From Acidimicrobiales bacterium (lineage in GTDB: Bacteria > Patescibacteriota > Minisyncoccia > Phycocordibacterales > UBA918): 64,000 bases of DNA. The DNA lies in the NCBI GenBank assembly GCA_047638595.1, contig JBLIMJ010000001.1:7768-71767 (forward strand). The letters run 5' to 3'. Positions 46,801 to 64,000 of the stretch are shown here, piece after piece. The position numbers and the translations under genes are program-made. Below the pieces are notes generated by a model, which was not told the origin of the DNA, searched no databases, and saw nothing but the letters and a program-made list of their open reading frames with translations. Each line of letters starts with the position of its first letter. The stretch's first letter is position 1.

Positions 46801-47462
46801 AATCCAATTATATCTTCACGTATAGCATCAATTTTAACACCAATATACGAAAGGGTATCATTTACCTCTTGTGCTTTAGTCACCTCGCTAAGCATTTGCG
46901 CTGACTGTACAGAAACCCCGTCGAGCAAGGCCTGGATAATATCCTTCTGAATCACTACTAACTCAGAAGAAAGACTGCTTCTTTGAAGCTCAAATGAAGC
47001 TAGTTCTGACCATTTTGCTACTGGATAGAATATTTGTTCTGATCTTGAATCCACAATATCTAAAAGAGTGACGTAGTCTTGATACACTTCAAACTCCCGA
47101 TTAAGACGTGCGACCATTAATGCTTTTCGTTCTGCATAGAAATCACCACAAGCGCCAAAGAGTTGATCTACTTCAACTAACTCTGCTTTATTAAGTGTTC
47201 CTAGGTTTCCAAGCAATTCATCAAACTTTTGTCGATCTTGTGTATCACAATCCTTCACAATCTCCGCAACAACAGCATCTGCTCCATTACGATCAGTCAC
47301 TTCAGCAATAGAAATGAGGGTGGTCTCTTGTTCTGAGACGAGCAACTTCATGGTAGAGACATACTCAGCTTGTTGTGTGTGTATATAAAGAGAAACTCCA
47401 TAAAACACAGATCCTAAAATTATAAGGCTACCAAAGATGTACTTCTTTTCAATATTTTTCAT
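46797..47462 (-). CDS. Membrane-anchored alpha-helical/coiled-coil protein (hypothetical)
   Basis: N-terminal TM; overlaps both neighbours by 4 bp, so it is operonic. Confidence 0.35.
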   Translation of the reverse strand: MKNIEKKYIFGSLIILGSVFYGVSLYIHTQQAEYVSTMKLLVSEQETTLISIAEVTDRNGADAVVAEIVKDCDTQDRQKFDELLGNLGTLNKAELVEVDQLFGACGDFYAERKALMVARLNREFEVYQDYVTLLDIVDSRSEQIFYPVAKWSELASFELQRSSLSSELVVIQKDIIQALLDGVSVQSAQMLSEVTKAQEVNDTLSYIGVKIDAIREDIIGL

Positions 47463-47465
47463 AGA

Positions 47466-49199
47466 CTATTCAACAATTTTTTCTACATCAGTAATCTCCT
47501 TTTCAACCTTCTTTTGAGCACTCTGAAGTGCCTCCTCTACCGCCTCAATAAGCACAGCCTCTGCCTTAGTTAACTTTTTTGTTTTTCGTGAAGAAGATAA
47601 CAAATCTGAATGGGTCCGAACGACTTTCCTTAAAGCCTCAAACTCAGCACCCAACATGACTAACGCTTCATCAGTTTCTCTAGTAACACCAGTTCGCAAC
47701 CGTCGTAGTCGGACAAACAAGAACCAAAGGCCTAGTATAGACAGTATAGTCAACGCAAGCAATGGAATCAGCACAGAGAGGATACTTACCACAACTGAGC
47801 CTATTCGAATATAACCTGGCTGTTGTACAGCAATACGGACTACATCACTCATCTCACTCTGTGCTCCGCGTTCATCAACAGCCACAGCAGAAAGCTCATA
47901 GACACCTAAAGAAAGCCTCCCTTCAGGGATAAAGATGAACTCTCCTGTTTCAGAACTTAGGATCGATATCTCCTGTGTATCACTTCCTATTTTAGTAAAC
48001 AACACTTTCACTTCAGCATTTGGTCGAGTAATACCTTTTATAACAGGAATAACGTCCTTTGAAACCTCAGACGGGTACTCAGTAAACTGAGGCTTATCAA
48101 ATGCAAGAACACCAAACGATATAGAGTCAATCAAGCTGTTTCCAGCACTATCAAAAGCTTCAATAATTACACTATGATGACCAGGCTCAAGTGATGGCAA
48201 GACCAGCTGACCCTTCTCATCTTCATCGATAAATTCAAAAGGTTCTCCACCGTCAATCTGTATCAAAAATCTTACTACAGCAGAGGTGTCATCCTCGGTC
48301 TTCAATACTAAAGTTTGTATAGGACTTGTTAAATCCACCCCTTCAGACAGTGTTACCTTAAAAGATGTCGGGGGTTTTGAATCAATCGCAATTCTATAGT
48401 GTGCTACACGCCCCCAACCATCGCCATTTCTAAACTGCATATGGAAATACTGCACACCTTCATCTAGGTCTGACAGTGAAATGCTCGAAATAGGTGTATC
48501 GTAGACTTTTGTTGGGATAGAACCACTATTCTCGTCTAAACGTGTCCTTACGGCAGTGACCCCTGCCGGCAGCGCCCACGATAACTCAGCAGACTTCTCT
48601 GTATACCAACCCTCCGGTTCAGGATGTGTTTTCGAGTTAATTACTGGAGCTGCAGGTGTATTTGCGGGTGCGATGTATTCTATTGTTTCTGGCTCAGGAC
48701 TCACTTCTGCAGAGACTATAGTAAACGAGCCCCCATTCATTGAAGTAAGAACATTGGTTCCACGTCCGTCTGCTGCGAGCACTGCCCCGCTGGTAAAAGA
48801 AACTCTAGGGTTCCCAGCGCCCTTAGTTCGGAAGGTTACAGAGATTACCGATCCTCCGCTCCCTGTGTAGCCGGTTGGACTACCTCCACTAAAGGAAATG
48901 GTTCCCGCACTATTTGAGAAAGAAGGTTCGGCTGTCCAAAGATTAAAAATTGAACCTTTAGTGACTCGCACAACACTCAACTCTCCAGGCTTGAAAGAAA
49001 GTTTTCCTTCCGCAGCGTTTATATTTTTACCCGAAGTATTTACCACCACGCGAGCAGTGAAAGTCTGACCAGCTGTGTACACACCTGTGCCTGGTGAAAC
49101 AGAAAGTGTAGCTGCATATGATGATGATGCTACACCACAAATAACTGCAAGTAAGAGCATTTTTATTGCAATAACAAAGTTGTGGTGTGTCAGATGCAT
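47466..49199 (-). CDS. Cohesin-domain surface protein with Ig-like middle region, C-terminal TM and cytoplasmic coiled-coil tail
   Basis: Signal peptide. Cohesin-like segment LSVSPGTGVYTAGQTFTARVVVNTSGKNINAAEGKLSFKPGELSVVRVTKGSIFNLW...GSVISVTFRTKGAGNPRVSF. TM IGSVVVSILSVLIPLLALTILSILGLWFLFV, then a basic/coiled-coil tail. Confidence 0.55.
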   Translation of the reverse strand: MHLTHHNFVIAIKMLLLAVICGVASSSYAATLSVSPGTGVYTAGQTFTARVVVNTSGKNINAAEGKLSFKPGELSVVRVTKGSIFNLWTAEPSFSNSAGTISFSGGSPTGYTGSGGSVISVTFRTKGAGNPRVSFTSGAVLAADGRGTNVLTSMNGGSFTIVSAEVSPEPETIEYIAPANTPAAPVINSKTHPEPEGWYTEKSAELSWALPAGVTAVRTRLDENSGSIPTKVYDTPISSISLSDLDEGVQYFHMQFRNGDGWGRVAHYRIAIDSKPPTSFKVTLSEGVDLTSPIQTLVLKTEDDTSAVVRFLIQIDGGEPFEFIDEDEKGQLVLPSLEPGHHSVIIEAFDSAGNSLIDSISFGVLAFDKPQFTEYPSEVSKDVIPVIKGITRPNAEVKVLFTKIGSDTQEISILSSETGEFIFIPEGRLSLGVYELSAVAVDERGAQSEMSDVVRIAVQQPGYIRIGSVVVSILSVLIPLLALTILSILGLWFLFVRLRRLRTGVTRETDEALVMLGAEFEALRKVVRTHSDLLSSSRKTKKLTKAEAVLIEAVEEALQSAQKKVEKEITDVEKIVE

Positions 49200-49205
49200 A
49201 CGTTT

Positions 49206-50267
49206 TTAATTATCTTCATCTTCTAATTCATCTTCGCTATCAACATCTTCACCAGTTTCAGCAGCACTCTTTCGTCTGAAGAAGAACAATACAGTAAATA
49301 CAAAACCTGAAAGGACAAAGATCCCGATACCTGTCGCAATCAACGCAATCATCACTTTCACCTCTGCAGTCATTGTTCGTTGTGCTTCGTCTGGCACGTA
49401 TATCGCAACATATTCATTCCCAGCCTTGTCTATAGCACGCACTCGAATAGTACTATTAAGTGTCTGATCTTTTAGTACATAAGGACTTTTTACTTCCTTC
49501 CATGGAGCGTCTTCACGTCCCCAATTAAATAAACTAGCTTCAGTCATAGACTCCTCAATTACTTCATAGTGATCAATACCTGACTGCTTGTCAGTAGTAT
49601 TAAAAACAATAAAATAATCATTACTAAATGCATTTTTTGTTCTTTCCAGAGTAATACTGAACTCTTCTGGGTCTATCTCGTCAGCGTTTACAATATCACC
49701 CCATTCATTATTAATGCTTGAGCCAGGTGTTTTTGAAAGCTCGATACTAGTACCTAATAATGTTAATGGTGCCAATGTTCCAAAACCGTCATTGAGTAAT
49801 ACTTGTGTCTGTTGACCAAAAGCAATTTGTCCCTGGTTTGTATCTCCGGATGCTCCAATAACAAAACCGGGAGACTGAAAAAGTAAATCAACAACAACAT
49901 TTGTTAAACGAGGATCACCTGCAATACGGCCACAATAGCCATTAGGTATACCTCCTGCAAAAGTAATAGTTTTATTAGAACGATCAATAATTGGTTCCTC
50001 AACCCACATACTCAGAATAGAAGCACCACGTGAGATGTCGACAGGTTGGATATTATCCGAGTATTTAATAACACCATCAACAACATTTACACATTCATCC
50101 TCATCAGTGTCCAACCGAACAGAGACTTTAAGAGTATCGCCTCGAGATAGTTCAGCGTGGTTGGGATCCATATACAATGTTGCCGCTTGAGTCTGAGTTG
50201 CCCCCAACAAAAAGACTGCAAAGAGACCAACGATAAGTTTCCTATTCATATAGTGTAAGTATAGCAA
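49206..50267 (-). CDS. Cohesin-domain surface protein with C-terminal TM and acidic cytoplasmic tail
   Basis: Signal peptide; GDTLKVSVRLDTDEDECVNVVDGVIKYSDNIQPVDISRGASILSMWVEEP...ITFAGGIPNGY; TM MIALIATGIGIFVLSGFVFTVLFFF; tail EDVDSEDELEDEDN. Confidence 0.5.
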   Translation of the reverse strand: MLYLHYMNRKLIVGLFAVFLLGATQTQAATLYMDPNHAELSRGDTLKVSVRLDTDEDECVNVVDGVIKYSDNIQPVDISRGASILSMWVEEPIIDRSNKTITFAGGIPNGYCGRIAGDPRLTNVVVDLLFQSPGFVIGASGDTNQGQIAFGQQTQVLLNDGFGTLAPLTLLGTSIELSKTPGSSINNEWGDIVNADEIDPEEFSITLERTKNAFSNDYFIVFNTTDKQSGIDHYEVIEESMTEASLFNWGREDAPWKEVKSPYVLKDQTLNSTIRVRAIDKAGNEYVAIYVPDEAQRTMTAEVKVMIALIATGIGIFVLSGFVFTVLFFFRRKSAAETGEDVDSEDELEDEDN

Positions 50268-50574: not shown

Positions 50575-51663
50575 TTAAAACGTTGGTGTTGCTATGTACG
50601 TTAGGACTGCAGAGTAGTCGTCTCCAGCTTCCTGAAGCGCAGAGATTTCTGTCTTGAATCCAATAGTAGTAGTACCAACACCTACACCTGTTCCACTTGC
50701 TGGACCATCATTTCCCATAACAGCTCGGGGAGTTGTTGTTGCGCCAATGAATTGACCTGCAACAAACTGAGTTCCTCGCGAAGTGATAGTAGTATCATCA
50801 GATGAGATACCCCACCATCCGTATGTGCTATCAACACCTAATGTAGGTGATGTGGGTGATACCCAGTTTCCTGGAACATCAGCGTCATTGATTCCATCAA
50901 TGTCAGCACCTGTTGATGATTCTAGTGCACCGTCCACTTGGACAGTAACTACATATCCATTAGATGCGTTTGTTGAAACAGACAGCTCATGAGCTGAAGA
51001 CGTTGCAACTAATGCATCTAACTTACCAAAGGTAACTGAAGTTGAAGCAGCAGCACCAGTTGTAGTTGCTCCTCCTGAACTTAGTTCAGTGTTAGCAGCT
51101 GTACCAGATACCGTAAAGGTAAAGATGGTATCAACTGTAGCTGTAACTGTAACTGCAGTAAGAATTACAATTCGTGTTGATCCTGTGTCAGTCATGGATC
51201 CTCCGAGAAGAATCTCGTATGAACCTTCAGAACCAGGACTTGTGACGAAGTTTGTAACACCTACGACAACATCGACAACGCTTGCAGCTGCAATGCTACC
51301 AGTAGCAACAGTCAAGGTAACAATTTGACCTGCACCAGCTGCTGATACGTTAGCACTAATGTCTGACGAATCATCATCAATAGTTACATCACCATCAACG
51401 ATTGAACCAATTCCTGTAAACCCTGAAGGGAAAGTGAAAGTGATTGTCTCCCCGTTCGCCACTCCAGTTGGAGTGACGAAAGAAAAAGTATGTGTTGGTG
51501 CAGCACTAGGCGATGAATCAGTAATTGTGTCGCTAAACGAACTCACGTTCGCAGCGTCCACAAAGCGAAGTGACGGCAAGCCAAGCGACCATAAAAGAAT
51601 CGCGAAACCTGCAATCATTGCAATAGTTTTGAGCATTCCGACAGATTTTTCTGTTCGAAACAT
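50575..51663 (-). CDS. Secreted T/S/G-rich surface protein with a WxL-like C-terminal domain
   Basis: Signal peptide, then low-complexity T/S/G/V-rich beta-type sequence. The C-terminal block (...GWWGISSDD...DDYSAVLTYIATPTF) is shared with the C-terminus of the 1414-aa protein (...DYYNTITYIAVPVF). Confidence 0.45.
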   Translation of the reverse strand: MFRTEKSVGMLKTIAMIAGFAILLWSLGLPSLRFVDAANVSSFSDTITDSSPSAAPTHTFSFVTPTGVANGETITFTFPSGFTGIGSIVDGDVTIDDDSSDISANVSAAGAGQIVTLTVATGSIAAASVVDVVVGVTNFVTSPGSEGSYEILLGGSMTDTGSTRIVILTAVTVTATVDTIFTFTVSGTAANTELSSGGATTTGAAASTSVTFGKLDALVATSSAHELSVSTNASNGYVVTVQVDGALESSTGADIDGINDADVPGNWVSPTSPTLGVDSTYGWWGISSDDTTITSRGTQFVAGQFIGATTTPRAVMGNDGPASGTGVGVGTTTIGFKTEISALQEAGDDYSAVLTYIATPTF

Positions 51664-51957: not shown

Positions 51958-52696
51958 CTATTACAGGGGACACCGAGTGTCCCCTGTAGTAAAATCTATA
52001 TATTGCTATGGAATTCTATCATGTAATAAATAGAGGAGTTGATAAACGTACTACCTTTCAAGAGGAGGGTGACTACTTACGTTTTATACAAAACCTTCAC
52101 ATATACAACAGCACAGAATCGGCGCCACATAATGTCTGGTCAACATCTGCCCGCATGAAAATAATGCCTGTAAAAAAATTAGTGACTATTCATGCGTACT
52201 GCCTCATGCCTAACCATTATCACCTTTTACTCTCACCTCTTGTCGATGACGGAATCACTAAGTTCATGCATAAGGTCGGCATGGGATACTCAAAATATTT
52301 TAATGAGAAAAATGAGCGTACTGGTGTCTTATGGCAAGGTAAATATAAAAGCATAAATATTACAACTGACGCACAGTTAAACTACATCCCTTACTATATA
52401 AATCTTAACGCTCTAGATCTTTCACACCCACAATGGAGACGCGGTGCTGTTACAAACACACAAAATGCATTAACTCGGCTACAGCAATACAAGTGGAGTA
52501 GTCATTCTCTATTTTTATACCCTGAAAAAATAGACACATCAATCCTTAGTGGAAGTTTTTTTACTAAAGAGCTAAGTCAGGCAAAATATATACAGGAAAT
52601 AGTAAATATTATTTCCGACAAAACCCTGGCTCAATATAGCGAAAGTATTGAACTAAAATAAATTACAGGGGACACCGAGTGTCCCCTGTAATTTAT
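51958..52696 (+). mobile_element. IS200-like minimal insertion element / RAYT-type unit: Y1 transposase gene bounded by identical perfect hairpins
   Basis: The left hairpin tacaggggacac-cgag-gtgtcccctgta (51962-51989) and an identical right hairpin (52664-52691) flank a single HUH transposase ORF. The unit is about 0.74 kb, typical of IS200. Confidence 0.6.
52008..52661 (+). CDS. tnpA: Y1 HUH transposase (IS200/IS605 TnpA / REP-associated tyrosine transposase family)
   Basis: HUH motif in HAYCLMPNHYHLLL, and a catalytic-Tyr region GMGYSKYFNEKNERTGVLWQGKYKS. Confidence 0.8.
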   Translation: MEFYHVINRGVDKRTTFQEEGDYLRFIQNLHIYNSTESAPHNVWSTSARMKIMPVKKLVTIHAYCLMPNHYHLLLSPLVDDGITKFMHKVGMGYSKYFNEKNERTGVLWQGKYKSINITTDAQLNYIPYYINLNALDLSHPQWRRGAVTNTQNALTRLQQYKWSSHSLFLYPEKIDTSILSGSFFTKELSQAKYIQEIVNIISDKTLAQYSESIELK

Positions 52697-52706: not shown

Positions 52707-53909
52707 TTAACCTGTCCAGTTGAAGAGCAGTATGGAAAAATCCTCTAGGCCGACTCTGTCGTTGCCGTTTATATCAGCTGGGGGGTTTGAGTTGCCGCCT
52801 GTTGTTCCCCACCAGAATATTAAAATGGAGAAGTCAATCAAATTAATAAGACCATCACGGTTTAGGTCTGAAGGTGTTGTTGGTGACCCATCCACTCCTA
52901 AAAATAACTGTAACGTAGAACTAAAACTACTTTCTGTAGTAAGAGAACCTGAACCAAGAATAAAACGGGCACGAGCTGTATATTCAGCTGCAGAGAGTCC
53001 ACTTGTATCAAAATCAATGTTCCAATAACCACCACTATCAGAAATGGTTGTGAGAACTTGGTCACTATCGCCAATGTGGACTTCAAGTGAAGTGTTCTGA
53101 ACAGCCTGTCCTGCAAAAGTGATAGTATCCCCAGGATTGATTGTAGAATCAGATACTACAATTGTTGGTGGAACAAGAATCCCTGCAACCTTTGTGATTG
53201 CTCCTTGCGTCACATCAAATGTAGTACCAAATGTAATCGATCGAATGTTATCGTCATCTTCAACCCAAAAACCCATTGAAATAGTCCCGGGTGAAGTATT
53301 AGAGGTAAACTCAAAATTACCAGCACTGTCAGCCTTCACGGTACCCACAGATTTAGCATCAAGAATAATGTTGACTTTCGCTCGCGGGATAGTTTTACCA
53401 GTTACATTTACCTGAGTATCACCAAAATCCTCATCACTTCCGCCAGACGGCTGAGTACCGCCACCTGAAGAACCGCCACTTCCAGAACCAGCTGGCTCAA
53501 TGGTACAGTCTGCATTACAGAAGTCACCTGAAATATTATTCCCATCATCACACTCCTCAGCATAGATAGTCTGCAAAATACTGTCCCCGCAATACGGTCC
53601 AAAATCACAATCCACATCGCACTGTCTACCTAAGATAGAAGTGCTGTATGCACCTGTTTCACCCAACACATCACAAGTCTCATCAACATCAACAATTTCA
53701 TTTCCACAGATACTTGTCGTTAAACTAGTTGTTGCAATATAACCCCCAGATATTACTTGCGCAGTAGCTACCTGACTTAGCAAGAAAAAACACCCTACTA
53801 CAGCAAGTGCAGCAGGTAGGGCGTTTAACTCATGCAAAAAAGTAACAAATTGTCTCATGGTAAAACTACGCCCGTGTCCGCCTACGACGTTCCCTGTACG
53901 TATGCGCAA
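52707..53909 (-). CDS. Secreted protein with Myxococcus-type cysteine-rich repeats, Ig-like domains and a C-terminal type-I dockerin
   Basis: Signal peptide; CGNEIVDVDETCD...YCGDSILQTIYAEECDDGNNISGDFCNADC (CxxCGDG...ECDDGN pattern); C-terminal DLNRDGLINLIDFSILIFWW / DINGNDRVGLEDFSILLFNW. Confidence 0.55.
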   Translation of the reverse strand: MRIRTGNVVGGHGRSFTMRQFVTFLHELNALPAALAVVGCFFLLSQVATAQVISGGYIATTSLTTSICGNEIVDVDETCDVLGETGAYSTSILGRQCDVDCDFGPYCGDSILQTIYAEECDDGNNISGDFCNADCTIEPAGSGSGGSSGGGTQPSGGSDEDFGDTQVNVTGKTIPRAKVNIILDAKSVGTVKADSAGNFEFTSNTSPGTISMGFWVEDDDNIRSITFGTTFDVTQGAITKVAGILVPPTIVVSDSTINPGDTITFAGQAVQNTSLEVHIGDSDQVLTTISDSGGYWNIDFDTSGLSAAEYTARARFILGSGSLTTESSFSSTLQLFLGVDGSPTTPSDLNRDGLINLIDFSILIFWWGTTGGNSNPPADINGNDRVGLEDFSILLFNWTG

Positions 53910-54813
53910 GGAGTAACATCAGAACAAGTAAAGATAAGATTGGAAGCAATACAGACAGCTTGTGTGCTGATGAGAGACCAGTAAATCCAAATCCAGCAGT
54001 TTGCAATGTCCCGTACGGCAGAATATTGAGATTAAGTTCACCTTGATACTTCACATCTTCATCATTCATGATTTCATAACGTGCAAGGTACGAACCTGTA
54101 GGTAGACGAGTCGGAACCTCAGCTACAATTTCTTCAGTTCCAAATGGTTCAATTTTTGTCAATTTACCCTTATTTGTTGTCTCTTCAAGTAATACAGTCC
54201 CTGAAGTATCATAAATTTTAAATACAATTTCTGAAGGAGATACATCAACGTTACCTGTATTTTCAAGGAGCATCGCAAAATTTATTTTTCCTGGAAAGTA
54301 AAGCCATCCGACTTTTGTACCTTCATTTAGATCATTGACCCCTACTTTACGAAGTCTAAAATCTTTTATAACTTTATCAATAACATGTAATTCAATATCA
54401 ATTTGAGCGCCGAGAGATATATTAACCGCACCTGTAGCAACAGCATCGTCAGTTGCCCCAGTTTTAATTCTTATAGCTCCTGTATACGTTTTAAAATCAG
54501 CATCATCGGGTACGGTAACACGGACAGTCATAGGAACCTTTTGTTCACCACGAGGGAGCGTAAAAGTTTCCCCTTGAATAATCTCAATCCAGTCAGATAT
54601 AGCTGGTGCGTCAACAGTAATAGATGCTTTTAGAGGTGTAGTGGGGTCTCCTCGAACAAGAAGGATTTGTTGTTCATAGGTCGAATTTCGAGTAAGACTC
54701 GTATTTCGAACAAATGGTGGAGTGACCCCAAAACCAGCCAGCACAGAATCAGCACCAAAGAGTACAAATATCACAATTGCTAATAGTACAGTTTTTGTAA
54801 AGAGGGTAGTCAT
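53866..54813 (-). CDS. Cell-surface protein, DUF916/DUF3324-like, C-terminal TM anchor (third paralog)
   Basis: GFGVTPPFVRN..., WIEIIQGETFTLPRGEQKVPMTVRVTVPDDADFKTYTGAIRIK, LENTGNVDVSPSEIVF, then TM plus RERRRRTRA tail. Overlaps the downstream gene by 44 bp. Confidence 0.5.
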   Translation of the reverse strand: MTTLFTKTVLLAIVIFVLFGADSVLAGFGVTPPFVRNTSLTRNSTYEQQILLVRGDPTTPLKASITVDAPAISDWIEIIQGETFTLPRGEQKVPMTVRVTVPDDADFKTYTGAIRIKTGATDDAVATGAVNISLGAQIDIELHVIDKVIKDFRLRKVGVNDLNEGTKVGWLYFPGKINFAMLLENTGNVDVSPSEIVFKIYDTSGTVLLEETTNKGKLTKIEPFGTEEIVAEVPTRLPTGSYLARYEIMNDEDVKYQGELNLNILPYGTLQTAGFGFTGLSSAHKLSVLLPILSLLVLMLLLAHTYRERRRRTRA

Positions 54814-54908
54814 TGGAAATCGACGTTATATTTCAACTTAATTATCCCAAGTTGGTTCAGATAAAGCAAGAACCACTGTTGGGATAACAGTGGTTCTGCA
54901 TAGTTTTA

Positions 54909-56789
54909 CTACCAATCAGCAGGTTCGGCTGTCTTTGCAGTGAATGTATTCTCCCCAGTGTATGCTCCGGCTAATGTAATTGCCACAGGCACTTCAATTC
55001 CCCAGAATGTTACACCTAGTGACTGTGTAGCAGTGGACGTTGATTTTTTAATATCAATCTCTAGTTCTACTGGTGTAGAAGAAGAAAGTATGAATCCGCT
55101 ACTAGTTGCTGATCCGTACGTTACTGATGAAGTTGCAAACACCTGATAATTGGCTTGAATTGTTGAAGATGATGAGTTTGGACACGTAATTGCCGAGGTG
55201 TATGTTCCACACATAGCTTGACCTGAGAGCATTTGATCCATACCTACATTTCCAACTGCCCGCACAGTAGTAGTCGCAACTAAAGGATCTGTCCTATCTC
55301 CTGGTTCAAGAGAACCAAATGGAATTGCTGCTGTATCAAGTACAAGCGCAAGGAAACTAACTACATCTTGGGCAATTGAACTTGTTGCAAGTGTTCCAGT
55401 TGCAAAGTTGTCGTCAACTGGTGCCACAGCTGCAGACCAGTCACTGGCAAAGTGCACGGTGTTTGTTGCTCCACCATCAGTAGGGTCAGCAATGTACCAA
55501 AGCGGGAATGTGCAATCAAACCGCATAGTTAAGTCAGTTGCTCCTAAACAACTTGTTGTAGATGCTGTACATGCGACATTCCAAGTAGTCGTTGGTACCG
55601 TACTTGTATAACAATCATTTGCATCATATTCTCCAGACGCATCACAATTATCCCACCCACCAGGAAGATTGGACCTAAATACTGATATTTCATATCCTAC
55701 TAATTCGTCGCCAGCACTTGCATTTAAACAACTATTGTTGTCCGAGGCATTGAAATAGAGTTCCATACCTGTTGTTTCTCCAGCTTCCACAGTCAGCGTC
55801 ATGTCAGCACCATTATTAAGGGTTATGTCACTGTCTGAAACAAAGGGTGTTGCATTTGCTACAGTTAAAACTGAGTCAGCTCCCTGTTGGCCTCCCAAGG
55901 CGACATGACCATGGTTATCCACGATGTAACCATATGAACCGTAGTTCTGGTCTCGCGTCGGAATTACAATAGTATATGCACCACTTTGTTGTGTCGCGGT
56001 AAAGGTGGACGTTGCAAGCGTTGTTGCGTTACAACTTGTACTTGTTGCTGAAAAGCTTGCAGTTGAACATACATGTAACTGTATGGTGTCAGCTGCATCC
56101 ACAACATCACTATCTGATGAGGTAGCATAGAATGTGACCGAATTACCAGGTAATCCAGGTGAATCATCTGAAAATGCTACTAGAACTGGGCGGTGATTCA
56201 CGTTGAATGGTGAGGCTGTTGTAGCTGTTCCTTGTTTATAGGTCGTGCTACAACGTGGACTTACCGGGTCGTCGTCACAAATCCACGCGTACCAGTCATT
56301 TGACTCTGCAAGACCCTCACTTGTTGTGGTAGTAGCAGTTACCGCAGACCCACTTGGTGTACTCGTTGAAACCGCCCACTGGGTCGTTGATGTTGGACTA
56401 CAATCAGGTGGTGCAGTTCCAAGTGACTCAGGACCTGCTGCGGCATTTGGTGTTGGCAGATTTGCTGTATTACAAATCAGCAAGAAGTATGGTGCACCAT
56501 TGGAGTCAGCACCAGTTGCTGTCCATGAAACAGTATCACCTGAATTAGTTGGTGTTGTTGTGGAGGATTCAAATAACTCTTGCGCATCTATAGTCCACTG
56601 AGGAGGAGTGTTTAACACTGTGATTGATGTAGTAGCGACACCTTGTGCTTCTACCTGTTGTAATTCTTGTGCACCCAAATTGAGAAGAAAAACAAAAGCA
56701 AAAACCACCACTCCTATAAATGAAGTCAAAACCGTTATCTTACCTGCAGTGTGTAAGTACTTTGGAAACTCTTGCATGTTGTACGACAT
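54909..56789 (-). CDS. Large (626 aa) T/S/A-rich membrane-anchored surface protein
   Basis: N-terminal signal-anchor ITVLTSFIGVVVFAFVFLLNLGA, then a long T/S/A/G/D-rich beta-type sequence with scattered Cys pairs. Confidence 0.55.
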   Translation of the reverse strand: MSYNMQEFPKYLHTAGKITVLTSFIGVVVFAFVFLLNLGAQELQQVEAQGVATTSITVLNTPPQWTIDAQELFESSTTTPTNSGDTVSWTATGADSNGAPYFLLICNTANLPTPNAAAGPESLGTAPPDCSPTSTTQWAVSTSTPSGSAVTATTTTSEGLAESNDWYAWICDDDPVSPRCSTTYKQGTATTASPFNVNHRPVLVAFSDDSPGLPGNSVTFYATSSDSDVVDAADTIQLHVCSTASFSATSTSCNATTLATSTFTATQQSGAYTIVIPTRDQNYGSYGYIVDNHGHVALGGQQGADSVLTVANATPFVSDSDITLNNGADMTLTVEAGETTGMELYFNASDNNSCLNASAGDELVGYEISVFRSNLPGGWDNCDASGEYDANDCYTSTVPTTTWNVACTASTTSCLGATDLTMRFDCTFPLWYIADPTDGGATNTVHFASDWSAAVAPVDDNFATGTLATSSIAQDVVSFLALVLDTAAIPFGSLEPGDRTDPLVATTTVRAVGNVGMDQMLSGQAMCGTYTSAITCPNSSSSTIQANYQVFATSSVTYGSATSSGFILSSSTPVELEIDIKKSTSTATQSLGVTFWGIEVPVAITLAGAYTGENTFTAKTAEPADW

Positions 56790-56872
56790 ATAATAATGAT
56801 ATTTACTATATAGTATATTAAATTTTTAAATAAAACGTGGGTTATACACAGTTTTATGCAAAGGATTGGACA

Positions 56873-58087
56873 CTATTCGTAACGAATTGCATCCAAGGGA
56901 TTGAGTGTTGCTGCACGTTTTGCTGGAAAAATACCAGTAAGATACCCTACCCCAGCAGAGAAAACGGCGATAAATGTAAGGAAATCAAGAGGAAAAGCAA
57001 ACAGATTTACGGACTGACCACCATATTGACTTGCTGCAAAATTGAGCATTAAGTTTACGATAGTACCCAAAGCTACCCCCATAATGATACCTGTAACACC
57101 CCCCAAAAATCCTACAACTATCGACTCGGAAACAAAGAGCCACTTAATATCACTCGGTGAAGCTCCAATAGTTCGCATGATTCCAATCTCTTTTGTTCGC
57201 TCAAGAAGTGTCACTGTCATGGTATTAAACATACCAATGGCTGATACAAGAAGCGCAATACCTCCAAAGGTTGCAAGTACGGCCTGTACACCCTGAAAGA
57301 TTTTAGTAGCTTGCTCAACAGTTTTTGACAACGCTGTCACACGATACCCAGCTTCGATGAGCTCACCCTCAACTATCGGGAGAAATTCATTAGTATCTAC
57401 ACGAACCTGGATACGTTCATACTCTTCAATACCAACGTGACTCCGCAACTCAGGCAGCATCATTAATGCATTAAGTACCCCCTCTTCCTTTGTAATACCT
57501 TTTACGGTGTACTCCTTATCTATATAAATCTCATTAACCTCATCTGTACCATCTTCAGCAGGTACTAAAAGACGGAATTTTACCTTTTCTCCAATAAATT
57601 TATCTATTTCCTCATCCTCGACACCAAAAAGTTTTAATACAGCAGGGGAAAGCATAATTTCGTTAGTGTTATCAATGTCTTCATCATCAAATACCTCCCC
57701 ATAAGATGCAATAATACCTGCATAACGAACATATGGGGGCTCTGCACCCTGAATAAACAAGTTCCCAGTAAGACCTTTGTAGGTAACCAACGCTGGAAAC
57801 CGAGCAAGAGGAGCTGCATCAAGCACGTGTTCATTTTCTTCAAACTCTACAACTGTTTGTGCTGTCAACTGCAAATTCTGTGCACCTGTAGCTGACACAC
57901 CAAGAGACAGGAGCGTTTCCCCAAACACGATTTGCTCTAGAATAATCTGCTGTAGGCCAAAACCAAGACCTACAAGAACAACCACAGCACCGGTTCCCAC
58001 TCCCATGCCTAAAATAGTCAACCAAGTACGCATGGGGTTGGTTTTAAAAGCTCGTGTTGAAAGCTGTGCTAAATCTTGAACGCGCAT
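56873..58087 (-). CDS. ABC transporter permease, FtsX/MacB family
   Basis: 404 aa with TM1, a large extracytoplasmic domain and three C-terminal TM helices, which is the FtsX-type topology. Confidence 0.8.
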   Translation of the reverse strand: MRVQDLAQLSTRAFKTNPMRTWLTILGMGVGTGAVVVLVGLGFGLQQIILEQIVFGETLLSLGVSATGAQNLQLTAQTVVEFEENEHVLDAAPLARFPALVTYKGLTGNLFIQGAEPPYVRYAGIIASYGEVFDDEDIDNTNEIMLSPAVLKLFGVEDEEIDKFIGEKVKFRLLVPAEDGTDEVNEIYIDKEYTVKGITKEEGVLNALMMLPELRSHVGIEEYERIQVRVDTNEFLPIVEGELIEAGYRVTALSKTVEQATKIFQGVQAVLATFGGIALLVSAIGMFNTMTVTLLERTKEIGIMRTIGASPSDIKWLFVSESIVVGFLGGVTGIIMGVALGTIVNLMLNFAASQYGGQSVNLFAFPLDFLTFIAVFSAGVGYLTGIFPAKRAATLNPLDAIRYE

Positions 58088-58115
58088 AATGTTTTTCTAA
58101 GTATACGACACTGTG

Positions 58116-59438
58116 TTACGTTTTATAACTTACGTCCACACCTTGAGCAATAAGTTTTTCAAAATATCGTGTAATATCGTCTGCCTCTTTAAGGGTCAAA
58201 GCCAAACCACCAGTACTGACTCCTTTCTGAATACATTCATGGAATATATCTTCCCCAGATACACCAACGACACGGTCAGCAATAACCTCAATAAGGTTAT
58301 CTTCTTTCTTCTTGGTCAGTTTCATTCGGTGCGCCTTTAGGAGATGCTCATGTAGCCGCTCTGCCAACTTGTGCTGATCAAAAAAAGAGTGGGTTTTATC
58401 CTGTTGATTACGGAAGCGACGAATATCATCTGCTTGATTTAAAATGAGGGCTGAAGTTTTTGACATACGTCTTGCTTCACGCTCTGGAATACCAACTCCT
58501 CCACGTTCATACGGAAGAACGAGCGTTTTAATAAAAGTATCTTTAGAAATCTTTCCTGATATAAAGAAATTAACAACTCTCTCCATACGTTCCAACTGGT
58601 CGTATGTATAATCCTGAGTAAGGAAATTAACGAGACTTTTTACGCGAAGTGTTTCAATTGAGTCGTAAGGAAATAGTCGAGCAAGTTGTTCAAGCTCGGT
58701 TACAATCGTCTCCCCTTCTCTCACCGGCTTTATCTGTTTCCTCTGAGGATTCACAACTTCACGTACAATTACACCATCTTTAAGATAATACACTCGATGG
58801 GCGTAGCTTAAGTGGGCAGCATTGTGCGACACCATAATAACCGTACGTCTATCAAACGTATTAATCTCGTCAATCTTATCCATAACCTGTTGGGTAGATA
58901 CAGAGTCGAGGTTCCCTGTCGGCTCATCAGCAAGAAGAATTCTCGGATCATTAATCATTGAGCGAGATACAGACACTCGCTGCTGCTGACCTCCTGAGAG
59001 CATGGGAGTAATCTTGTGTGATACATGCCCCACACCAAACCTATCCAACAATGACTGAGCCCTTCTATTACGTGTGGCCTTGTCCTTGTTTGCAAAAATC
59101 ATTGGTAGTGCAACATTGTCGAGCACGGTGAGTGATGGAATGAGGTTAAACTGCTGGAAAATAATTCCCATAACATACCGCTGGAAATACACACGCTCAT
59201 CTATGGAAATTGCATAAATATCTTCACCTCCAATAAGCATCGTTCCATTACCTGGTGGCAATGAACCCTGAATAGAATACATGAGTGTCGACTTACCAGA
59301 GCCCGAAGCACCAAAAAGAATGATGTACTCACCTTCATAGATGTCAGTGCTCGCACCAGAAAGAGCCTTGAATTCATTACTCTTTCCTTTGTTGTATATA
59401 ATGTCAAGATCTCGACAGATAATCAGTGGTTTTGCCAT
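58116..59438 (-). CDS. ABC transporter ATP-binding protein (MacB/LolD-like) with an unusual roughly 200-aa C-terminal extension
   Basis: Walker A GASGSGKST, signature LSGGQQQRVSVSRSM, Walker B ILLADEPTG. The preferred start is the ATG giving MAKPLIICRDL, whereas the ORF track begins at an upstream TTG (59483). The C-terminal half has no recognisable family. Confidence 0.8.
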   Translation of the reverse strand: MAKPLIICRDLDIIYNKGKSNEFKALSGASTDIYEGEYIILFGASGSGKSTLMYSIQGSLPPGNGTMLIGGEDIYAISIDERVYFQRYVMGIIFQQFNLIPSLTVLDNVALPMIFANKDKATRNRRAQSLLDRFGVGHVSHKITPMLSGGQQQRVSVSRSMINDPRILLADEPTGNLDSVSTQQVMDKIDEINTFDRRTVIMVSHNAAHLSYAHRVYYLKDGVIVREVVNPQRKQIKPVREGETIVTELEQLARLFPYDSIETLRVKSLVNFLTQDYTYDQLERMERVVNFFISGKISKDTFIKTLVLPYERGGVGIPEREARRMSKTSALILNQADDIRRFRNQQDKTHSFFDQHKLAERLHEHLLKAHRMKLTKKKEDNLIEVIADRVVGVSGEDIFHECIQKGVSTGGLALTLKEADDITRYFEKLIAQGVDVSYKT

Positions 59439-59864
59439 GAAGAAATTAAATGAAGAAGGGAGTGTAACGACTATGACGCCCAATTTTTAATGGCTGAAAG
59501 GAATATAAAATTGGAGGTACACTTGGGATGAATTTAGTTCCAAATTTGAACCTGCTATAGGTAAATTCCTGGAATTTCTAATCATAACCACACTCAGAAA
59601 TTTTCTTAAAAATCTCTATAATAATATCATCCCACCACTAAAAACATGTTTGCTGTATCCCCACATATTATCTTAAATCGTTTCTGTCTAGGAACAGTAG
59701 GTGCTCAATAGACTGTTTTCATACAAACATACGATTTCAGTACAGATATTTCTGTACTGTTGGTAAAGAAAATTCTGGTCGTAAGTGACAGTATCGGAGT
59801 GCGCCTCTCCTATCCATGCTTCGGCTAAAGTCTCACATCGGGATTCCCGACTCCTGTCGGGATC

Positions 59865-59887
59865 AGATAAAAAGTCCTCAGGGACTT
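59865..59887 (-). terminator. Rho-independent terminator
   Basis: aaaaagtcc-tcag-ggacttttt, immediately after the stop of the 59889..61352 gene. Confidence 0.5.
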
Positions 59888-59888
59888 T

Positions 59889-61352
59889 TTATCCAGTGAT
59901 ATTCTTGACCCATCCAAACGTACTTTCGAAGTTTTCTAGAATTAGATCGATAATACTTTTTTCCTGAATCGGAGTGAAGAGTACGAAGTTCTCTGACTGG
60001 ACAGTGTTTTGAGCCTCATCCCAACAGTTTAACCAGAATTGGTACACAGTTGCAGGTGCAAAGTCGACAATCACCTCTACGTGTCGCTCAGCGTAACTAA
60101 TTTCATCAGCCTCGATAACAGTGGGCTCGACTCCTGCGGCGACACCTTCAGTGTAGGCCATCGTGCAATATGCAGGTTCATCTGTTTTCCATTCAACAAT
60201 ACTCTGAATACGGGCAGTATCTCCTGGAAACAGTGTTGATTCGTTGTTTACGTTTGAAATAAGCGGGGGTGCTGTATCACGTACAGTGATAAAGGTCATC
60301 GGCTGACTCTTTACACGATCGCCACCGCTATTTTCAGCGATAACAAACGCTACATACCTAGTTCCTAAAGTTAGATCGGCAATACGCATTTGATGTGTTG
60401 TCGCAAGTGTCGGCCTTCCTTTTGAATTTTGTACACCAGTAGTAAGATCTTGATATTCAATCAAAGCCTTTGCAGGTACCGTTGTTTCCCATGCAAGTGT
60501 TGCTGCATTTTCTTCCACTTTTACAATACGCAAGTTGCGAATATTTGGTAAGGAAGCTTTGGTTTTAAACGTATAATCAAGAGACTCACCTGTGACATTT
60601 AGTGAATCAGTAGATTGTACTTTGAAATGATATTCAGTGAATGCCTCTAGCCCAATAAGCTGTACTTCATGGTTTTTTGCATTTCCATCGGTACTAGATT
60701 GGGAGAATGAGTATGACCCAGGAACATATTCAGCGGCGGAGGAAAAAAGAACTGTTGAGTTAGATTCACGGTCGGTGGTCCACTTAACCAAAGCGCTAAT
60801 GGTTTCAGGGATAACTATAGGTGGACCTACAATAGCGAGAGCATCTGTGATACCTTGAATTGCTTCAATAGTTACATCAAGAATTTCTTGAAGTTGTTCA
60901 ACTTGTGTAATTTGTTTAATATCTTCAATAATTTCCTGTGTGGTACTTTCACTTGATCCAACCCCTGTTCCATCCTGATCTTGTATAATATCACCTGTCT
61001 GTACTTTGTAATCTGCAGAGATACCCTGATTCCCTTCCTCATCTGCAGAAACTACACGGAAGTGATACACGCGATTTGCCTCGAGATCATCAAGTGTAAT
61101 AGAGTGAGTCTGCCTGTCAGATACCGGAAGACGAACGATACCGTAGTCCTCTAAGAGACCGTAGTTCACCAACGAGTCAGCATCTTCATCAGTTTCCCAA
61201 GTAATAGTAATGGACGTCTCAGAGTTATTTACAACCTGCACGTTTGAAAGTTCAGGCGGCACAATATCATCTACTGCTGCATATGCAACAGTAGTGACAG
61301 AAAGAACACTCATCAAAATACCTAAAAGCTTGGCCTTCATTAGGTTAATCAT
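59889..61352 (-). CDS. Secreted protein with tandem fibronectin type III-like domains
   Basis: Signal peptide, then repeated FN3-like units (ITITWETDEDADSLVNYG...YHFRVVSADEEGNQG; ATLAWETTVPAKALIEYQ...YVAFVIAENSGGD). Confidence 0.6.
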   Translation of the reverse strand: MINLMKAKLLGILMSVLSVTTVAYAAVDDIVPPELSNVQVVNNSETSITITWETDEDADSLVNYGLLEDYGIVRLPVSDRQTHSITLDDLEANRVYHFRVVSADEEGNQGISADYKVQTGDIIQDQDGTGVGSSESTTQEIIEDIKQITQVEQLQEILDVTIEAIQGITDALAIVGPPIVIPETISALVKWTTDRESNSTVLFSSAAEYVPGSYSFSQSSTDGNAKNHEVQLIGLEAFTEYHFKVQSTDSLNVTGESLDYTFKTKASLPNIRNLRIVKVEENAATLAWETTVPAKALIEYQDLTTGVQNSKGRPTLATTHQMRIADLTLGTRYVAFVIAENSGGDRVKSQPMTFITVRDTAPPLISNVNNESTLFPGDTARIQSIVEWKTDEPAYCTMAYTEGVAAGVEPTVIEADEISYAERHVEVIVDFAPATVYQFWLNCWDEAQNTVQSENFVLFTPIQEKSIIDLILENFESTFGWVKNITG

Positions 61353-61397: not shown

Positions 61398-64000
61398 CTA
61401 AAAAGGACTAATCGGTGTGAATGTAACTCCACCAGTATGTGTTGCACTTGATACACCAAATGGAATTGAGATTCCCCAGAACACATCATCAATAATTGCA
61501 GAGATTGTTGTTGTTGGCTTCGCAAGATCTACCCGGTAACTCGTTGCAGTGGTTGCAAGGGACGTACAACTTACACACAATGGGTAATTGAAGGTACTTG
61601 TAGCAAAGATCTGTTCAGATGCTGGAATACTTGAGTCGTATCCATCAGTCAACGCGGTACCCTCAATATCGATATCAATCTCAACATTACCGAGATTCTC
61701 TAACGTTGACGAAGCATTTATTGCCCCTGTGTCAGAACTTGGTGATAACGAAACATAATTAATTGCATTATTTACATCCAGTGCTCGAAGCGTCTGCACC
61801 TCCACACTCGGGCTGGTACCAAAGCCGTATCCACCCAACACATCTTCTACTTCAAAGAATGCCCACCATTGATTTGCTCCATCAGTATCGGTTGCATCAG
61901 CGTGGTAAAAGAAGTCTGCATAACACATGAGTGTGCAACTATTTCCTGCACAATTACTAAATGAACACTGTGACGACGTAGTCTCTACGTAACAATCGTT
62001 ATTATCAGGCGTACACAACGCCCCCGCTGAGGTGGTATACATAGTTGATGATGCAACTGTCAATTCATTGTACCCGTTGAGGTCTGTTACGGTACTACTT
62101 GCATACACACGTGTGGTTGTTCCTGGAACCAGTGAAATATCAGCCCCATCGTTAAAGGTTACTGCACCAAATGTCGGATCAAACCTCAGTGTCATTTTTG
62201 CAACACTCAAGTAGGTGTCTAATTCAGCACCCCCATCAGTAACCCGTAAACAGATATTTTCATCAAACGCACTTAATGTTGGGGTAATAACATATTCGAG
62301 TTCTGTGTACTCGTCTTGCTCCAAGGTAACCGTACCAGCAGGGTTAGAGGGATCTTCAGTGAGTTTACCACTAGTAAATGTACCATTAGCAATGGAAAGG
62401 AGGTCAGTAGTGCTCTCACCATCGATTACATTACCTGAACTTTGCATACACACCGGTGAGACTCCACAACTTACCTGCGGTGGCACTGCTGCATAGCCAG
62501 CACCATCAACTGCTTCACAACTTGGCGCTACGCCTTGTTCTGCGAATTCAAGAAGGTAAGATGATCCGGCTATCTGTGGTCCAGAATTTTCAACCAACAA
62601 CCGTAAACGTGCAGTGTCTCCAGGACTAAGGTCTGATGTGAACGTATCAATATCAGCGCGCCATGAGGCACCCCCACCAACCTGCTCTGCTCCGAAGTAC
62701 ACAGTCGGCTCAGTATCCACTCTCACTCGTGAGGTGATACCGTCCCAGCCTCCATTGTTAAACCAGTAGGTAAATCCAATACCCCCCTGAGTGTAACTGT
62801 TGTCGTTTGCAGTTGTCGAAGCAACTTCACTTCCATCCTTACTGAGCGTCACAGTGATATTATCGTTGGTCTGCCAGTCAATCTCAACTTCATACCATCC
62901 AGATGTGTATGCAACACTTGTTGACGCGAGTATGGTTCCACTACTGTCTACATCAACTACATTCTTAGCTAATGATATACGGTCAGTACCAGGCACTTGC
63001 TCGGTACACACTGCATAATTATCGTTACCACTTCCTGGATCCTGCACCGCGAACAAAGTACACACTTCATCACCACCACCTGAGGTATCGATATACTGCA
63101 TATAGCGAATAATTTCCCCCTGACTGGTTGTTGCACTTGTATGGTTGTAAATACCATCAATCGCCTGCAATCCTTCGCTACCGGTGTTATCCAACCCGTA
63201 TGACCCACCAAACGCGAATGTTGCGTCTACCGCAAACTTACCCGTGTCTCCAGAGTATTCTGCGATATCTCCATCTTCAAAGTCATCTCCCATAATAAAT
63301 GTCGTATCAATTGAACTAGATGATAGCGCTACTGCGTTCTCATAGTACATAAAGACTGTTGCAATATCATTTGCAGGCAATGTTGGTACCTGCACCCATA
63401 CTGTCGCCGCTACACTAGCGGTGAGAGTCTCTACCCAGAATGGAATCTCCGTCATTCCTGAGTTATCGGTGAAACGAAGATCATCAAATCCAGCCTGCAT
63501 GTCAGCGTCATAAGTTACTTCAATTTTTACTGATGTTGAGCTATATGTGGCTGAATCTTGATTTTGTATACGAACCCTCTTTCTTTTGTCCCAGTTAGTA
63601 TTGAACCATTCTGAGTCTGGTACACCCAGCCCGCCATCGTCATTTCTCCAACGGTAATGTGTCTGTTCTATAAGAAAGCAGAGACTATCGTCCCATCGGA
63701 GGAATCCACAGGCATCCATACCGTCGTCATCAAATGCCTCACCATATATATTTCCGTCAGAGCCGGTGAATTCCCACGTATTATTCGTGGTACCCAATAA
63801 AAGCGCAGCGTTAAACCCAGTAATCGCACCCAGAGTTGAGAAAGCGACATTAGTAAACACCTTAGGTGAATTCGCATTAAGTGCCTCTGCAGACACCGTG
63901 ATCGATGAGCCACTGTCTACAGTGAGTATATACGACCCATTAGATAAATCTGAAATTGTTGGAGTATTACTAATATTAAGACCATAAATATCGGTATTGG
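61398..64000 (-). CDS. Very large surface protein, partial (N-terminus beyond the right edge)
   Basis: The frame stays open upstream of the track start (a GTG at 63896) through position 64000 (...TDIYGLNISNTPTISDLSNGSYILTVDSGSSITVSAEALN...). It contains QTHYRWRNDDGG...ENICLRVTDGG modules like the 1414-aa protein. C-terminus ...THTGGVTFTPISPF. Confidence 0.55.
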   Translation of the reverse strand, partial: NTDIYGLNISNTPTISDLSNGSYILTVDSGSSITVSAEALNANSPKVFTNVAFSTLGAITGFNAALLLGTTNNTWEFTGSDGNIYGEAFDDDGMDACGFLRWDDSLCFLIEQTHYRWRNDDGGLGVPDSEWFNTNWDKRKRVRIQNQDSATYSSTSVKIEVTYDADMQAGFDDLRFTDNSGMTEIPFWVETLTASVAATVWVQVPTLPANDIATVFMYYENAVALSSSSIDTTFIMGDDFEDGDIAEYSGDTGKFAVDATFAFGGSYGLDNTGSEGLQAIDGIYNHTSATTSQGEIIRYMQYIDTSGGGDEVCTLFAVQDPGSGNDNYAVCTEQVPGTDRISLAKNVVDVDSSGTILASTSVAYTSGWYEVEIDWQTNDNITVTLSKDGSEVASTTANDNSYTQGGIGFTYWFNNGGWDGITSRVRVDTEPTVYFGAEQVGGGASWRADIDTFTSDLSPGDTARLRLLVENSGPQIAGSSYLLEFAEQGVAPSCEAVDGAGYAAVPPQVSCGVSPVCMQSSGNVIDGESTTDLLSIANGTFTSGKLTEDPSNPAGTVTLEQDEYTELEYVITPTLSAFDENICLRVTDGGAELDTYLSVAKMTLRFDPTFGAVTFNDGADISLVPGTTTRVYASSTVTDLNGYNELTVASSTMYTTSAGALCTPDNNDCYVETTSSQCSFSNCAGNSCTLMCYADFFYHADATDTDGANQWWAFFEVEDVLGGYGFGTSPSVEVQTLRALDVNNAINYVSLSPSSDTGAINASSTLENLGNVEIDIDIEGTALTDGYDSSIPASEQIFATSTFNYPLCVSCTSLATTATSYRVDLAKPTTTISAIIDDVFWGISIPFGVSSATHTGGVTFTPISPF

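Follow-up and report, generated by a model that had tools for sequence, protein, structure and literature searches.

Gene content and conservation of the locus

Here, we describe a MacB/FtsX-type ABC transporter pair and the cell-surface genes around it in a 64,000-nt stretch of contig JBLIMJ010000001.1 (hereafter the window, meaning that whole stretch), deposited as 'Acidimicrobiales bacterium'. A sequence-only reading of this DNA had singled out a string of five genes on the minus strand (52707-59483), in which an ABC ATPase and an FtsX-type permease are followed by genes for three surface proteins, and had proposed that the transporter serves the export, release or anchoring of these proteins. 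All five open reading frames (ORFs) are present as that reading had placed them. The region belongs to a large and conserved cell-surface locus in a bacterium of the candidate phyla radiation (CPR), of Paceibacteria/Kaiserbacteria type, and its most conserved module consists of the permease and the ATPase, the latter with a C-terminal extension (C-extension), usually together with a secreted protein that carries FN3 repeats and a near-invariant tail. The gene for this FN3-tail protein, the most deeply conserved neighbor of the pair, lies upstream of the five-gene string and hence outside the downstream genes on which the earlier reading had focused. The main features of the locus, in the direction of transcription, are the following (aa, amino acids; NBD, nucleotide-binding domain, and TM, transmembrane, are used further below):

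61398..64000, minus strand: giant DUF2341 surface protein, C-terminal part (DUF2341, E 3.5e-15); the frame runs past the window end
59889..61352, minus strand: secreted FN3-repeat protein, 487 aa (fn3/Pur_ac_phosph_N matches)
about 59892-59996, minus strand: tail of the FN3 protein, ...FVLFTPIQEKSIIDLILENFESTFGWVKNITG, near-invariant and amphipathic
59866..59894, minus strand: terminator-like hairpin overlapping the FN3 stop codon (-16.2 kcal/mol, z -5.0)
58116..59438, minus strand: ABC ATPase, 440 aa (ABC_tran), with the C-extension at about 58119-58736
56873..58087, minus strand: FtsX-family permease, 404 aa (MacB_PCD and FtsX Pfam matches, hydropathy)
56841..56850, minus strand: TGTGTATAAC box, a putative promoter or regulator site, conserved, 5' of a TAnAAT -10 element and the 626-aa gene
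54909..56789, minus strand: 626-aa Cys- and Thr/Ser-rich surface protein (composition; C-terminal domain in common with the giant DUF2341 protein)
54869..54897, minus strand: intrinsic terminator 3' of the 626-aa gene, a 12-13 bp stem followed by a U-rich tract
54841..54846, minus strand: GATAAT -10-like box, ~25 nt upstream of the 315-aa gene
53866..54813, minus strand: WxLIP/PamC-D-like membrane-anchored protein, 315 aa (AlphaFold model, Foldseek, topology)
52707..53858, minus strand: secreted Cys-rich-repeat/Ig-like/dockerin protein, 383 aa (Pfam, gene-start comparison)

A scan of species-representative genomes with a profile of the C-extension yielded 136 relatives, all of them Patescibacteria (labeled Kaiserbacteria, Paceibacteria, Nomurabacteria or Parcubacteria), so that the 'Acidimicrobiales' label is very probably a binning or taxonomy error. 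When the best 80 of these 136 were compared, the order giant DUF2341, FN3, ABC, FtsX, 626, 315, dockerin, 362, 353, cohesin (the last three genes are listed further below) was found in practically every locus that was long enough (about 80), with identities of 71-87% for the ATPase, falling to 39-52% for the 362-aa protein. The order thus persists even where proteins are down to 40-60% identity. Three lineages with C-extension identities of 37-45% still have the ABC, FtsX, ~626-aa, ~310-376-aa, dockerin and cohesin genes. A loss of gene order in related genomes, which the sequence-only reading had named as grounds for abandoning its proposal, was seen in practically none of the about 80 genomes, nor in these three more divergent lineages. 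Two exceptions inside the clade, loci L034 and L074, have lost the 626-aa and 315-aa genes and kept the FN3-tail, ABC and FtsX genes; the L034 proteins have no significant match to the 626-aa or 315-aa families. The genes for the ATPase with its C-extension and for FtsX are adjacent in every lineage with readable sequence past the ATPase gene; in one further lineage, the contig ends inside the next (FtsX) gene.

The comparison also refines the gene calls. The longest ORF of the ATPase gene would encode 455 aa, and the orthologs have 440 aa in most of the 80 genomes, which bears out the start at 59438. The permease gene starts 28 nt past the ATPase stop. The 44-bp overlap reported between the 315-aa and dockerin genes turned out to be an artefact of choosing the longest ORF. 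The most likely start of the dockerin gene is ATG 53858 (383 aa, from Met18 of the longest ORF); a separate annotation of an identical contig has it 8 nt past the 315-aa stop, and with a median gap of 3 nt among orthologs it is probably translationally coupled to the 315-aa gene. The designation of the 626-aa protein as a giant adhesin does not hold, because the true giant is the DUF2341 protein encoded upstream of the five-gene string, the frame of which is open to base 63998 and the orthologs of which exceed 2400 aa, reaching 7458 aa in one relative. The spacer between the FN3 and ATPase genes (59439-59888) is ~450 nt of non-coding DNA, unusually long compared with the median of ~190 nt in relatives; Rfam and tRNA scans of the window gave no matches, for Rfam including this spacer.

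The ATPase, the permease and the FN3-tail protein

The assignment of the pair to the MacB/FtsX-type ABC systems is borne out by Pfam domains, by the nearest NCBIfam models and by a 4-TM topology. ABC_tran spans residues 42-189 of the 455-aa ORF (Pfam, E 3.7e-30), and the translation contains the Walker A (GASGSGKST), signature (LSGGQQQR), Walker B (ILLADEPT) and H-loop (VSHN) motifs. The permease matches MacB_PCD (PF12704, 56.7 bits) and FtsX (PF02687, 67.9 bits), both above the Pfam cut-off, and its hydropathy indicates four TM helices with a ~220-aa MacB_PCD ectodomain (about residues 42-262) between TM1 and TM2. The nearest NCBIfam models are DarD, LolD, MacB and FtsE for the NBD, all of them under cut-off (for instance, LolD 171.2 bits vs 307.75 and FtsE 161.8 vs 264.85), and MacB and LolC/E for the permease, again well below the equivalog cut-offs (lolCE, 75.7 bits vs 362.45); FtsX_Gpos reaches 45.9 bits vs 225, in the C-terminal TM region alone. 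Because all NCBIfam scores fall well below the equivalog cut-offs, the pair is MacB-type and a member of no named subfamily.

MacB, LolCDE and FtsEX, the type VII ABC systems, act on extracytoplasmic partners by mechanotransmission. Like these systems, in which the NBD is separate or fused, the pair combines an NBD with a 4-TM permease of the FtsX fold that carries a big ectodomain between TM1 and TM2. It differs from them in its partners, given that no MacA/HlyD adaptor, LolA-like protein or hydrolase was detected among its neighbors, that its NBD bears a two-repeat helical C-terminal domain and that its conserved partner gene encodes an FN3-repeat protein with an invariant tail. Specifically, the adaptor or the outer-membrane channel of a tripartite MacAB-TolC system was found neither among the neighbor proteins nor in the related loci, the LolD and LolC/E models were not reached at equivalog level, and an FtsEX assignment is at odds with the low equivalog scores, the MacB_PCD ectodomain and the lack of a hydrolase among the neighbors.

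The ~200-aa C-terminal extension of the ATPase, noted earlier as belonging to no known family, was confirmed as such: it comprises ~205 aa (residues ~235-440) and has no sequence relative in Pfam and NCBIfam scans or in a profile search against the Protein Data Bank (PDB). It is a conserved family, with 124 matches in a word-indexed search and 274 clusters at 50% identity in an exhaustive profile search, almost always located at residues ~215-435 of proteins of ~425-460 aa. After a strongly conserved linker, QIKPVxxGETIVTELEQLARLYPYDS..., a unit of ~64 residues occurs twice (hhalign gives the internal repeat a probability of 96%, E 2e-9), with exactly two copies in 50 of the 53 full-length members; longer proteins containing the extension (545-775 aa) revealed no informative fusions. 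The C-extension is a previously undescribed two-repeat helical cytoplasmic domain.

In several long contigs the ATPase ortholog is split (L001 9520-10843, L002 9191-10519, L003 7115-8568, as well as L057, L071 and L031), and none of 120 C-extension matches from the word-indexed search contains a full-length ATPase. The splits are single-base frameshifts at different positions in each contig, with a striking three in L002, in this gene alone. We considered and rejected the possibility that the ATPase is a pseudogene or is recoded; nearly all of the 80 species-representative metagenome-assembled genomes (MAGs) carry the gene unbroken, encoding about 440 aa. Because other genes are broken too in several of the affected assemblies, and the ATPase gene is intact elsewhere, including Illumina-type MAGs, we judge the splits to be assembly noise.

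The FN3 protein of the window (487 aa) has a signal peptide and about 4 FN3 domains. No other part of the protein is as conserved as its tail, which has the consensus ...TP.QEK.IIDLILENFE.TFGWVKN... and is at least 90% conserved over the 80 species. A regular expression for the tail matched 81 of 95 loci with the C-extension, 9 of the 14 misses having no upstream DNA, and none of 80 control loci (723 kb in total) around generic MacB-type ABC genes, these controls being NBD-only matches from a metagenome scan with a divergent full-length ATPase alignment that picks up generic ABC motifs. For a deeper comparison, six lineages were used that have the same ATPase architecture at 31-40% ATPase identity. 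In three of these six, a large FN3-repeat protein is encoded immediately upstream (in one case with a response regulator between), and in one, the upstream DNA is lacking. The FN3 orthologs found 5' of the ABC gene in distant lineages (E 1e-25 to 3e-70) include proteins of 1410 and 1659 aa, and in three such lineages, the tail ends 3-7 residues before the stop codon.

Several observations on relatives and on regulation belong here. The response-regulator receiver gene that lies between the FN3-tail gene and the C-extension ATPase gene in one lineage (L095 822-1259) hints at regulation of the FN3/ABC/FtsX module, and histidine kinases are encoded at 38325-45659 of the window. In L176 (11387-13315), the FtsX partner has 642 aa, with a 240-residue N-terminal extension that contains extra hydrophobic helices (multi-TM).

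Surface proteins and transcription signals downstream of the transporter

The 315-aa protein had been described as the third of three DUF916/DUF3324-like paralogs, a description that is right for fold and architecture and is not borne out by Pfam sequence families. No match to PF06030 or PF11797 was obtained at E<1 for the window protein or for 41 of its 42 orthologs, the remaining one having a weak WxLIP_HBD match; 1213 homologues were retrieved. The protein is related to the other two paralogs, located at 18-21 kb, but weakly so (hhalign E 2e-4 and 4e-5), and these two have sub-threshold WxLIP_PGBD matches. In an AlphaFold model based on a 74-sequence alignment (AF2; predicted local distance difference test, pLDDT, 82.2; a single-sequence run gave an unusable 49.5), a signal peptide precedes two beta-sandwich domains, and the protein ends with a TM helix and a basic tail. 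In a Foldseek search of the PDB, this model retrieved WxLIP structures from Enterococcus faecium at ranks 1-3 (9i25_C/9i1y, E 5e-9 to 7e-8), and it is because the top three matches are solved WxLIP that the earlier description holds for fold and architecture. One of these 2026 structures is bound to a WxL protein (9i25). The next matches are RbmA and the pilus chaperones FimC, PapD, DraB and CfaA. The TM-scores to WxLIP, at 0.28-0.35, are low, which may reflect that the two domains stand at a different angle to each other. PDB sequence-profile searches with the 315-aa and 362-aa families found no relatives.

Two published systems offer points of comparison. WxL clusters of Lactobacillales and Bacillales encode small WxL, large WxL and WxLIP (DUF916-DUF3324-TM) proteins, and WxLIP is reported to complete a partner beta-sandwich with a donated strand (PMC10599100). 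The predicted topology of the 315-aa protein is that of WxLIP (signal peptide, two tandem Ig-like domains and C-terminal TM helix), and its best PDB folds are found there. It differs in having no sequence match to PF06030, PF11797 or WxL and in its host, a CPR bacterium rather than a Firmicute. WxL clusters generally are not known to include an ABC transporter. In the WxLIP paper, an ABC transporter goes unmentioned (PMC10599100). In the Pam pilus of Ca. Mycosynbacter amalyticus, PapD-like chaperones with a C-terminal TM helix act with donor-strand pilins, PamC/D likewise being reported to complete partner beta-sandwiches with a donated strand, and no dedicated machinery is reported; ABC, FtsX, MacB, WxL and Paceibacteria are unmentioned (preprint 10.64898/2026.03.03.709456). 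Shared with the Pam system is a CPR-specific, membrane-anchored, chaperone-like protein of two beta domains and a C-terminal TM helix; of the Pam donor-strand mechanism, it is the chaperone-like fold that is seen here. Unlike PamR, the FN3 protein described here lacks a C-terminal TM helix and comprises about 4 FN3 domains.

The 626-aa protein is T/S-rich, as noted previously (25.9% Ser+Thr; 14 Cys residues), and has no family match in Pfam and NCBIfam scans. Its N-terminal helix is very hydrophobic (Kyte-Doolittle 2.73), and a sub-threshold TadE/G-like N-terminal signature in 19 of 42 orthologs may only reflect TM-helix composition. Its C-terminal domain is common to the giant DUF2341 protein (E 2e-11). 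Pfam yielded no match to a WxL domain, the partner expected in a WxL cluster, in the 626-aa family or its neighbors, nor does the 626-aa family match CPR_Pam_pilin_C, in which it differs from the Pam system. A C-terminal kinship of the 626-aa and 362-aa families was tried and rejected, hhalign finding none.

Beyond the dockerin gene, the window contains the following:

52008..52661, plus strand: IS200-like Y1 transposase-family gene (Y1_Tnp, E 1.9e-9), outside the conserved locus
50575..51663, minus strand: Pam-pilin-like protein, 362 aa (sub-threshold CPR_Pam_pilin_C match)
47466..50267, minus strand: two proteins with C-terminal TM anchors, 353 aa and 577 aa (Cohesin and Big_13 in the 577-aa one)

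The transposase gene, on the opposite strand, sits in the spacer between the dockerin and pilin-like genes, which measures 241-2052 nt in relatives. The 362-aa protein aligns with the whole CPR_Pam_pilin_C model, a likeness to the Pam system, at 26.3 bits (E 6e-6), which is under the curated cut-off of 55; sub-threshold matches to the same model occur in 32 of 41 orthologs. The description of the 383-aa product as a dockerin-bearing Cys-rich-repeat protein stands for the repeats (DUF4215/myxo_disulf_rpt, above cut-off), and its Dockerin_1 match is just under the cut-off in the window (22.3 bits vs 22.9) and stronger in orthologs, e.g., in L086. The 577-aa protein matches Cohesin at 31.8 bits (cut-off 24.1) in addition to Big_13, and the 353-aa protein is its paralog; both are likely docking partners of the dockerin proteins. 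In total, cohesin/dockerin modules occupy 46033-50267 and 52707-53858 of the minus strand, with two dockerin-like proteins of 383 and 255 aa. As in known cohesin-dockerin assemblies, one locus encodes a membrane-anchored cohesin protein together with one or more putative dockerin proteins; unlike in those, there is no glycoside hydrolase context, and the window protein falls slightly short of the Dockerin_1 cut-off.

A second surface cluster (18166-25049, minus strand) contains a gene for a 1414-aa protein that combines an ice-binding-like domain with a Pam-pilin-like C-terminus, followed by the two WxLIP-like paralogs of 340 and 542 aa, the latter with LytR_C. The 362-aa and 1414-aa proteins have a C-terminal domain in common, as do the 626-aa and giant DUF2341 proteins. 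The occurrence of small and very large neighboring proteins with a common C-terminal domain beside a WxLIP-like anchor mirrors the pattern of WxL clusters (PMC10599100). Genes for disulfide-bond formation (DsbD_TM, redoxin and DsbA-like) lie just downstream of this cluster, at 14674-16686. A type IV pilus locus is located at 28174-35306 (minus strand), with prepilin-type pilins at 28174-28632, 28712-29281 and probably 30790-31311, a PilC-like T2SSF protein at 32570-33622 and a PilB-like T2SSE ATPase at 33627-35306.

The sequence-only reading had taken tight spacing and shared orientation as signs that the transporter serves the surface proteins. In view of the transcription signals, tight spacing does not imply a single operon. 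The hairpin after the 626-aa gene is a conserved intrinsic terminator (-20 kcal/mol, z -7.1): across 64 sequences, 89.3% of cells are paired, 83 double-sided changes were counted vs 21.5 in shuffles (0/500), and sliding the partners lowers the pairing to 31-66%. Between this terminator and the 315-aa gene, a TTTTCGATAAT -10-like box is present in 51 of 58 spacers. The spacer between the FtsX and 626-aa genes contains an exact TGTGTATAAC box in about 55 loci, together with the TAnAAT element, and no conserved terminator in the spacers displayed. The 626-aa gene probably has its own transcript too, and read-through from FtsX may also reach it. With a covarying terminator and conserved promoter boxes splitting it, the string comprises at least three transcription units, namely ABC-FtsX, 626 and 315-dockerin. 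The TGTGTATAAC box also precedes the 362-aa pilin-like gene in about 12 loci and may be a promoter or regulator site that genes for abundant surface filaments have in common; its count inside the window alone is not above chance; the copies in the window lie at 56841-56850, 27927-27936 and 28689-28698 (all minus strand, the last with 1 mismatch), that is, also upstream of type IV pilin genes.

Possible functions of the module

Our tentative preference, at somewhat short of an even chance, goes to a MacB-type mechanotransducer: the ectodomain of the pair would grip the FN3 protein at its tail, and in this clade the pair would serve the assembly of WxL/Pam-like surface proteins. Its core would be three genes, encoding the secreted FN3-tail protein, the ABC ATPase with the two-repeat domain and the 4-TM permease with the MacB ectodomain. 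By analogy with the permease-partner pairs MacB-MacA, LolC-LolA and FtsX-EnvC/PcsB, ATP hydrolysis in the cytoplasm would be relayed through the permease to the ectodomain, which would hold the FN3 protein, probably via the tail, while the C-terminal domain of the ATPase may gate or regulate hydrolysis. Such a module would act mechanically on surface proteins outside the cytoplasm instead of pumping solutes. In this clade, where it appears embedded among genes of putative WxL/Pam type, the WxLIP-like 315-aa protein would presumably use beta-strand complementation to hold the C-terminal domain common to the 626-aa and giant DUF2341 proteins, and the Pam-pilin-like protein and the cohesin/dockerin partners would complete the surface gene set.

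As for the downstream string, the earlier proposal that the transporter serves these proteins gains from the strong synteny, the assumption of one operon fails, and the coupling is plausible but unproven. Several observations weigh against the coupling and against the preferred reading as a whole. In the window, the FN3, 626-aa and 315-aa genes each have terminator or promoter signals of their own, so that co-transcription with ABC/FtsX is not indicated. The 626/315/dockerin string is present in none of the five deeper lineages with downstream DNA, the sixth ending in the FtsX gene. Although the transporter is linked to surface-protein genes in about 80 genomes, two deeper lineages have no such gene in the available DNA: in L092/93, UvrC is encoded upstream and neither an FN3 nor a surface gene is seen (only 1.8 kb upstream being available), and in L176, none is found within 10 kb on each side, the neighbors being EF-P, S15, PNPase and the CCA-adding enzyme. 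The second WxLIP-like/adhesin cluster of the window has no ABC/FtsX nearby, and the same is true of the published Pam operon (10.64898/2026.03.03.709456). Finally, synteny inside one clade can reflect descent alone.

These observations lend themselves to a different explanation, which we regard as doubtful yet the most serious competitor, namely that the pair is an old housekeeping envelope transporter of CPR bacteria, moving a lipid, peptide or toxic compound in the manner of MacB, HrtBA or BceAB, and that its surface neighbors are a frozen accident. The distant loci fit such a role, one with UvrA-like, sigma-70 and YceG genes downstream, one with UvrC upstream, one amid the EF-P, S15, PNPase and CCA-adding enzyme genes of L176, and another with a second FtsX/ABC pair adjoining, as do the best NCBIfam matches of the NBD, the exporter ATPases DarD and MacB, and the separate transcription signals in the window. 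WxLIP/Pam-type clusters, moreover, occur without ABC/FtsX. An accident is harder to reconcile with an adjacency that persists in about 80 species, even where, as in L034, the flanks have been swapped for other surface proteins, or with the linkage of the FN3-tail protein, which is seen in three of the six distant lineages and at none of the control loci; judged from the alignment, the extreme conservation of the tail would also argue for a specific binding partner.

The idea of release, already contained in the sequence-only reading, would correspond to a LolCDE-like extractor that pulls the N-terminal helix of the 626-aa protein, and perhaps those of other subunits, from the membrane and hands the protein to the WxLIP-like anchor. 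Permease residues 21-404 align end to end with positions 24-411 of the LolC/E model, the 626-aa helix is very hydrophobic and carries the weak TadE/G-like signature in part of the orthologs, and its gene follows directly 3' of FtsX with no conserved terminator between them in the spacers displayed; we nevertheless consider this explanation quite unlikely, given that the 626-aa gene is not beside the pair in any distant lineage or in L034 and L074, that the Lol models score far under cut-off and that the Tad match is sub-threshold and may just mirror helix composition. Very unlikely is an FtsEX-type regulator that activates a peptidoglycan hydrolase, for division or for opening the wall to giant adhesins or filaments, since, although FtsE and FtsX models are among the matches, CPR genomes routinely carry ftsEX annotations (PMC11809585) and YceG/MltG-family and sigma genes lie 3' of the pair in one distant lineage, both models fall far short of their cut-offs (FtsX_Gpos matching the C-terminal TM region alone), the ectodomain is MacB_PCD and not of the FtsX type, the neighbors showed neither a hydrolase nor a coiled-coil activator domain and FtsE proteins lack the 205-aa C-extension.

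Returning to the MacB-type mechanotransducer, a bolder version, which we think unlikely to hold in full, would make FN3-tail, ABC and FtsX a CPR-specific ATP-powered machine that assembles, tensions or releases non-type-IV filaments and giant adhesins of the WxL/Pam kind; it would supply the energy-coupled machinery that the Pam study lacked and would unite Firmicute WxL clusters and CPR Pam pili in one ancient strand-complementation system. In the literature, we found no paper linking an ABC/FtsX module with FN3, WxL or Pam genes in CPR bacteria.

CPR bacteria live attached to other cells, and in the only structural study of a CPR-specific pilus, the assembly machine was not found. The locus described here yields an undescribed cytoplasmic domain of a MacB-type ATPase, represented in 274 clusters, a candidate for the extracytoplasmic partner, recognizable by its invariant tail peptide, and, from a predicted structure, a fold-level tie between chaperone-like anchors of CPR bacteria and the WxLIP of Firmicutes. 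If the coupling to the surface proteins is true, it would represent a new use of MacB mechanotransmission, in a presumed monoderm bacterium.

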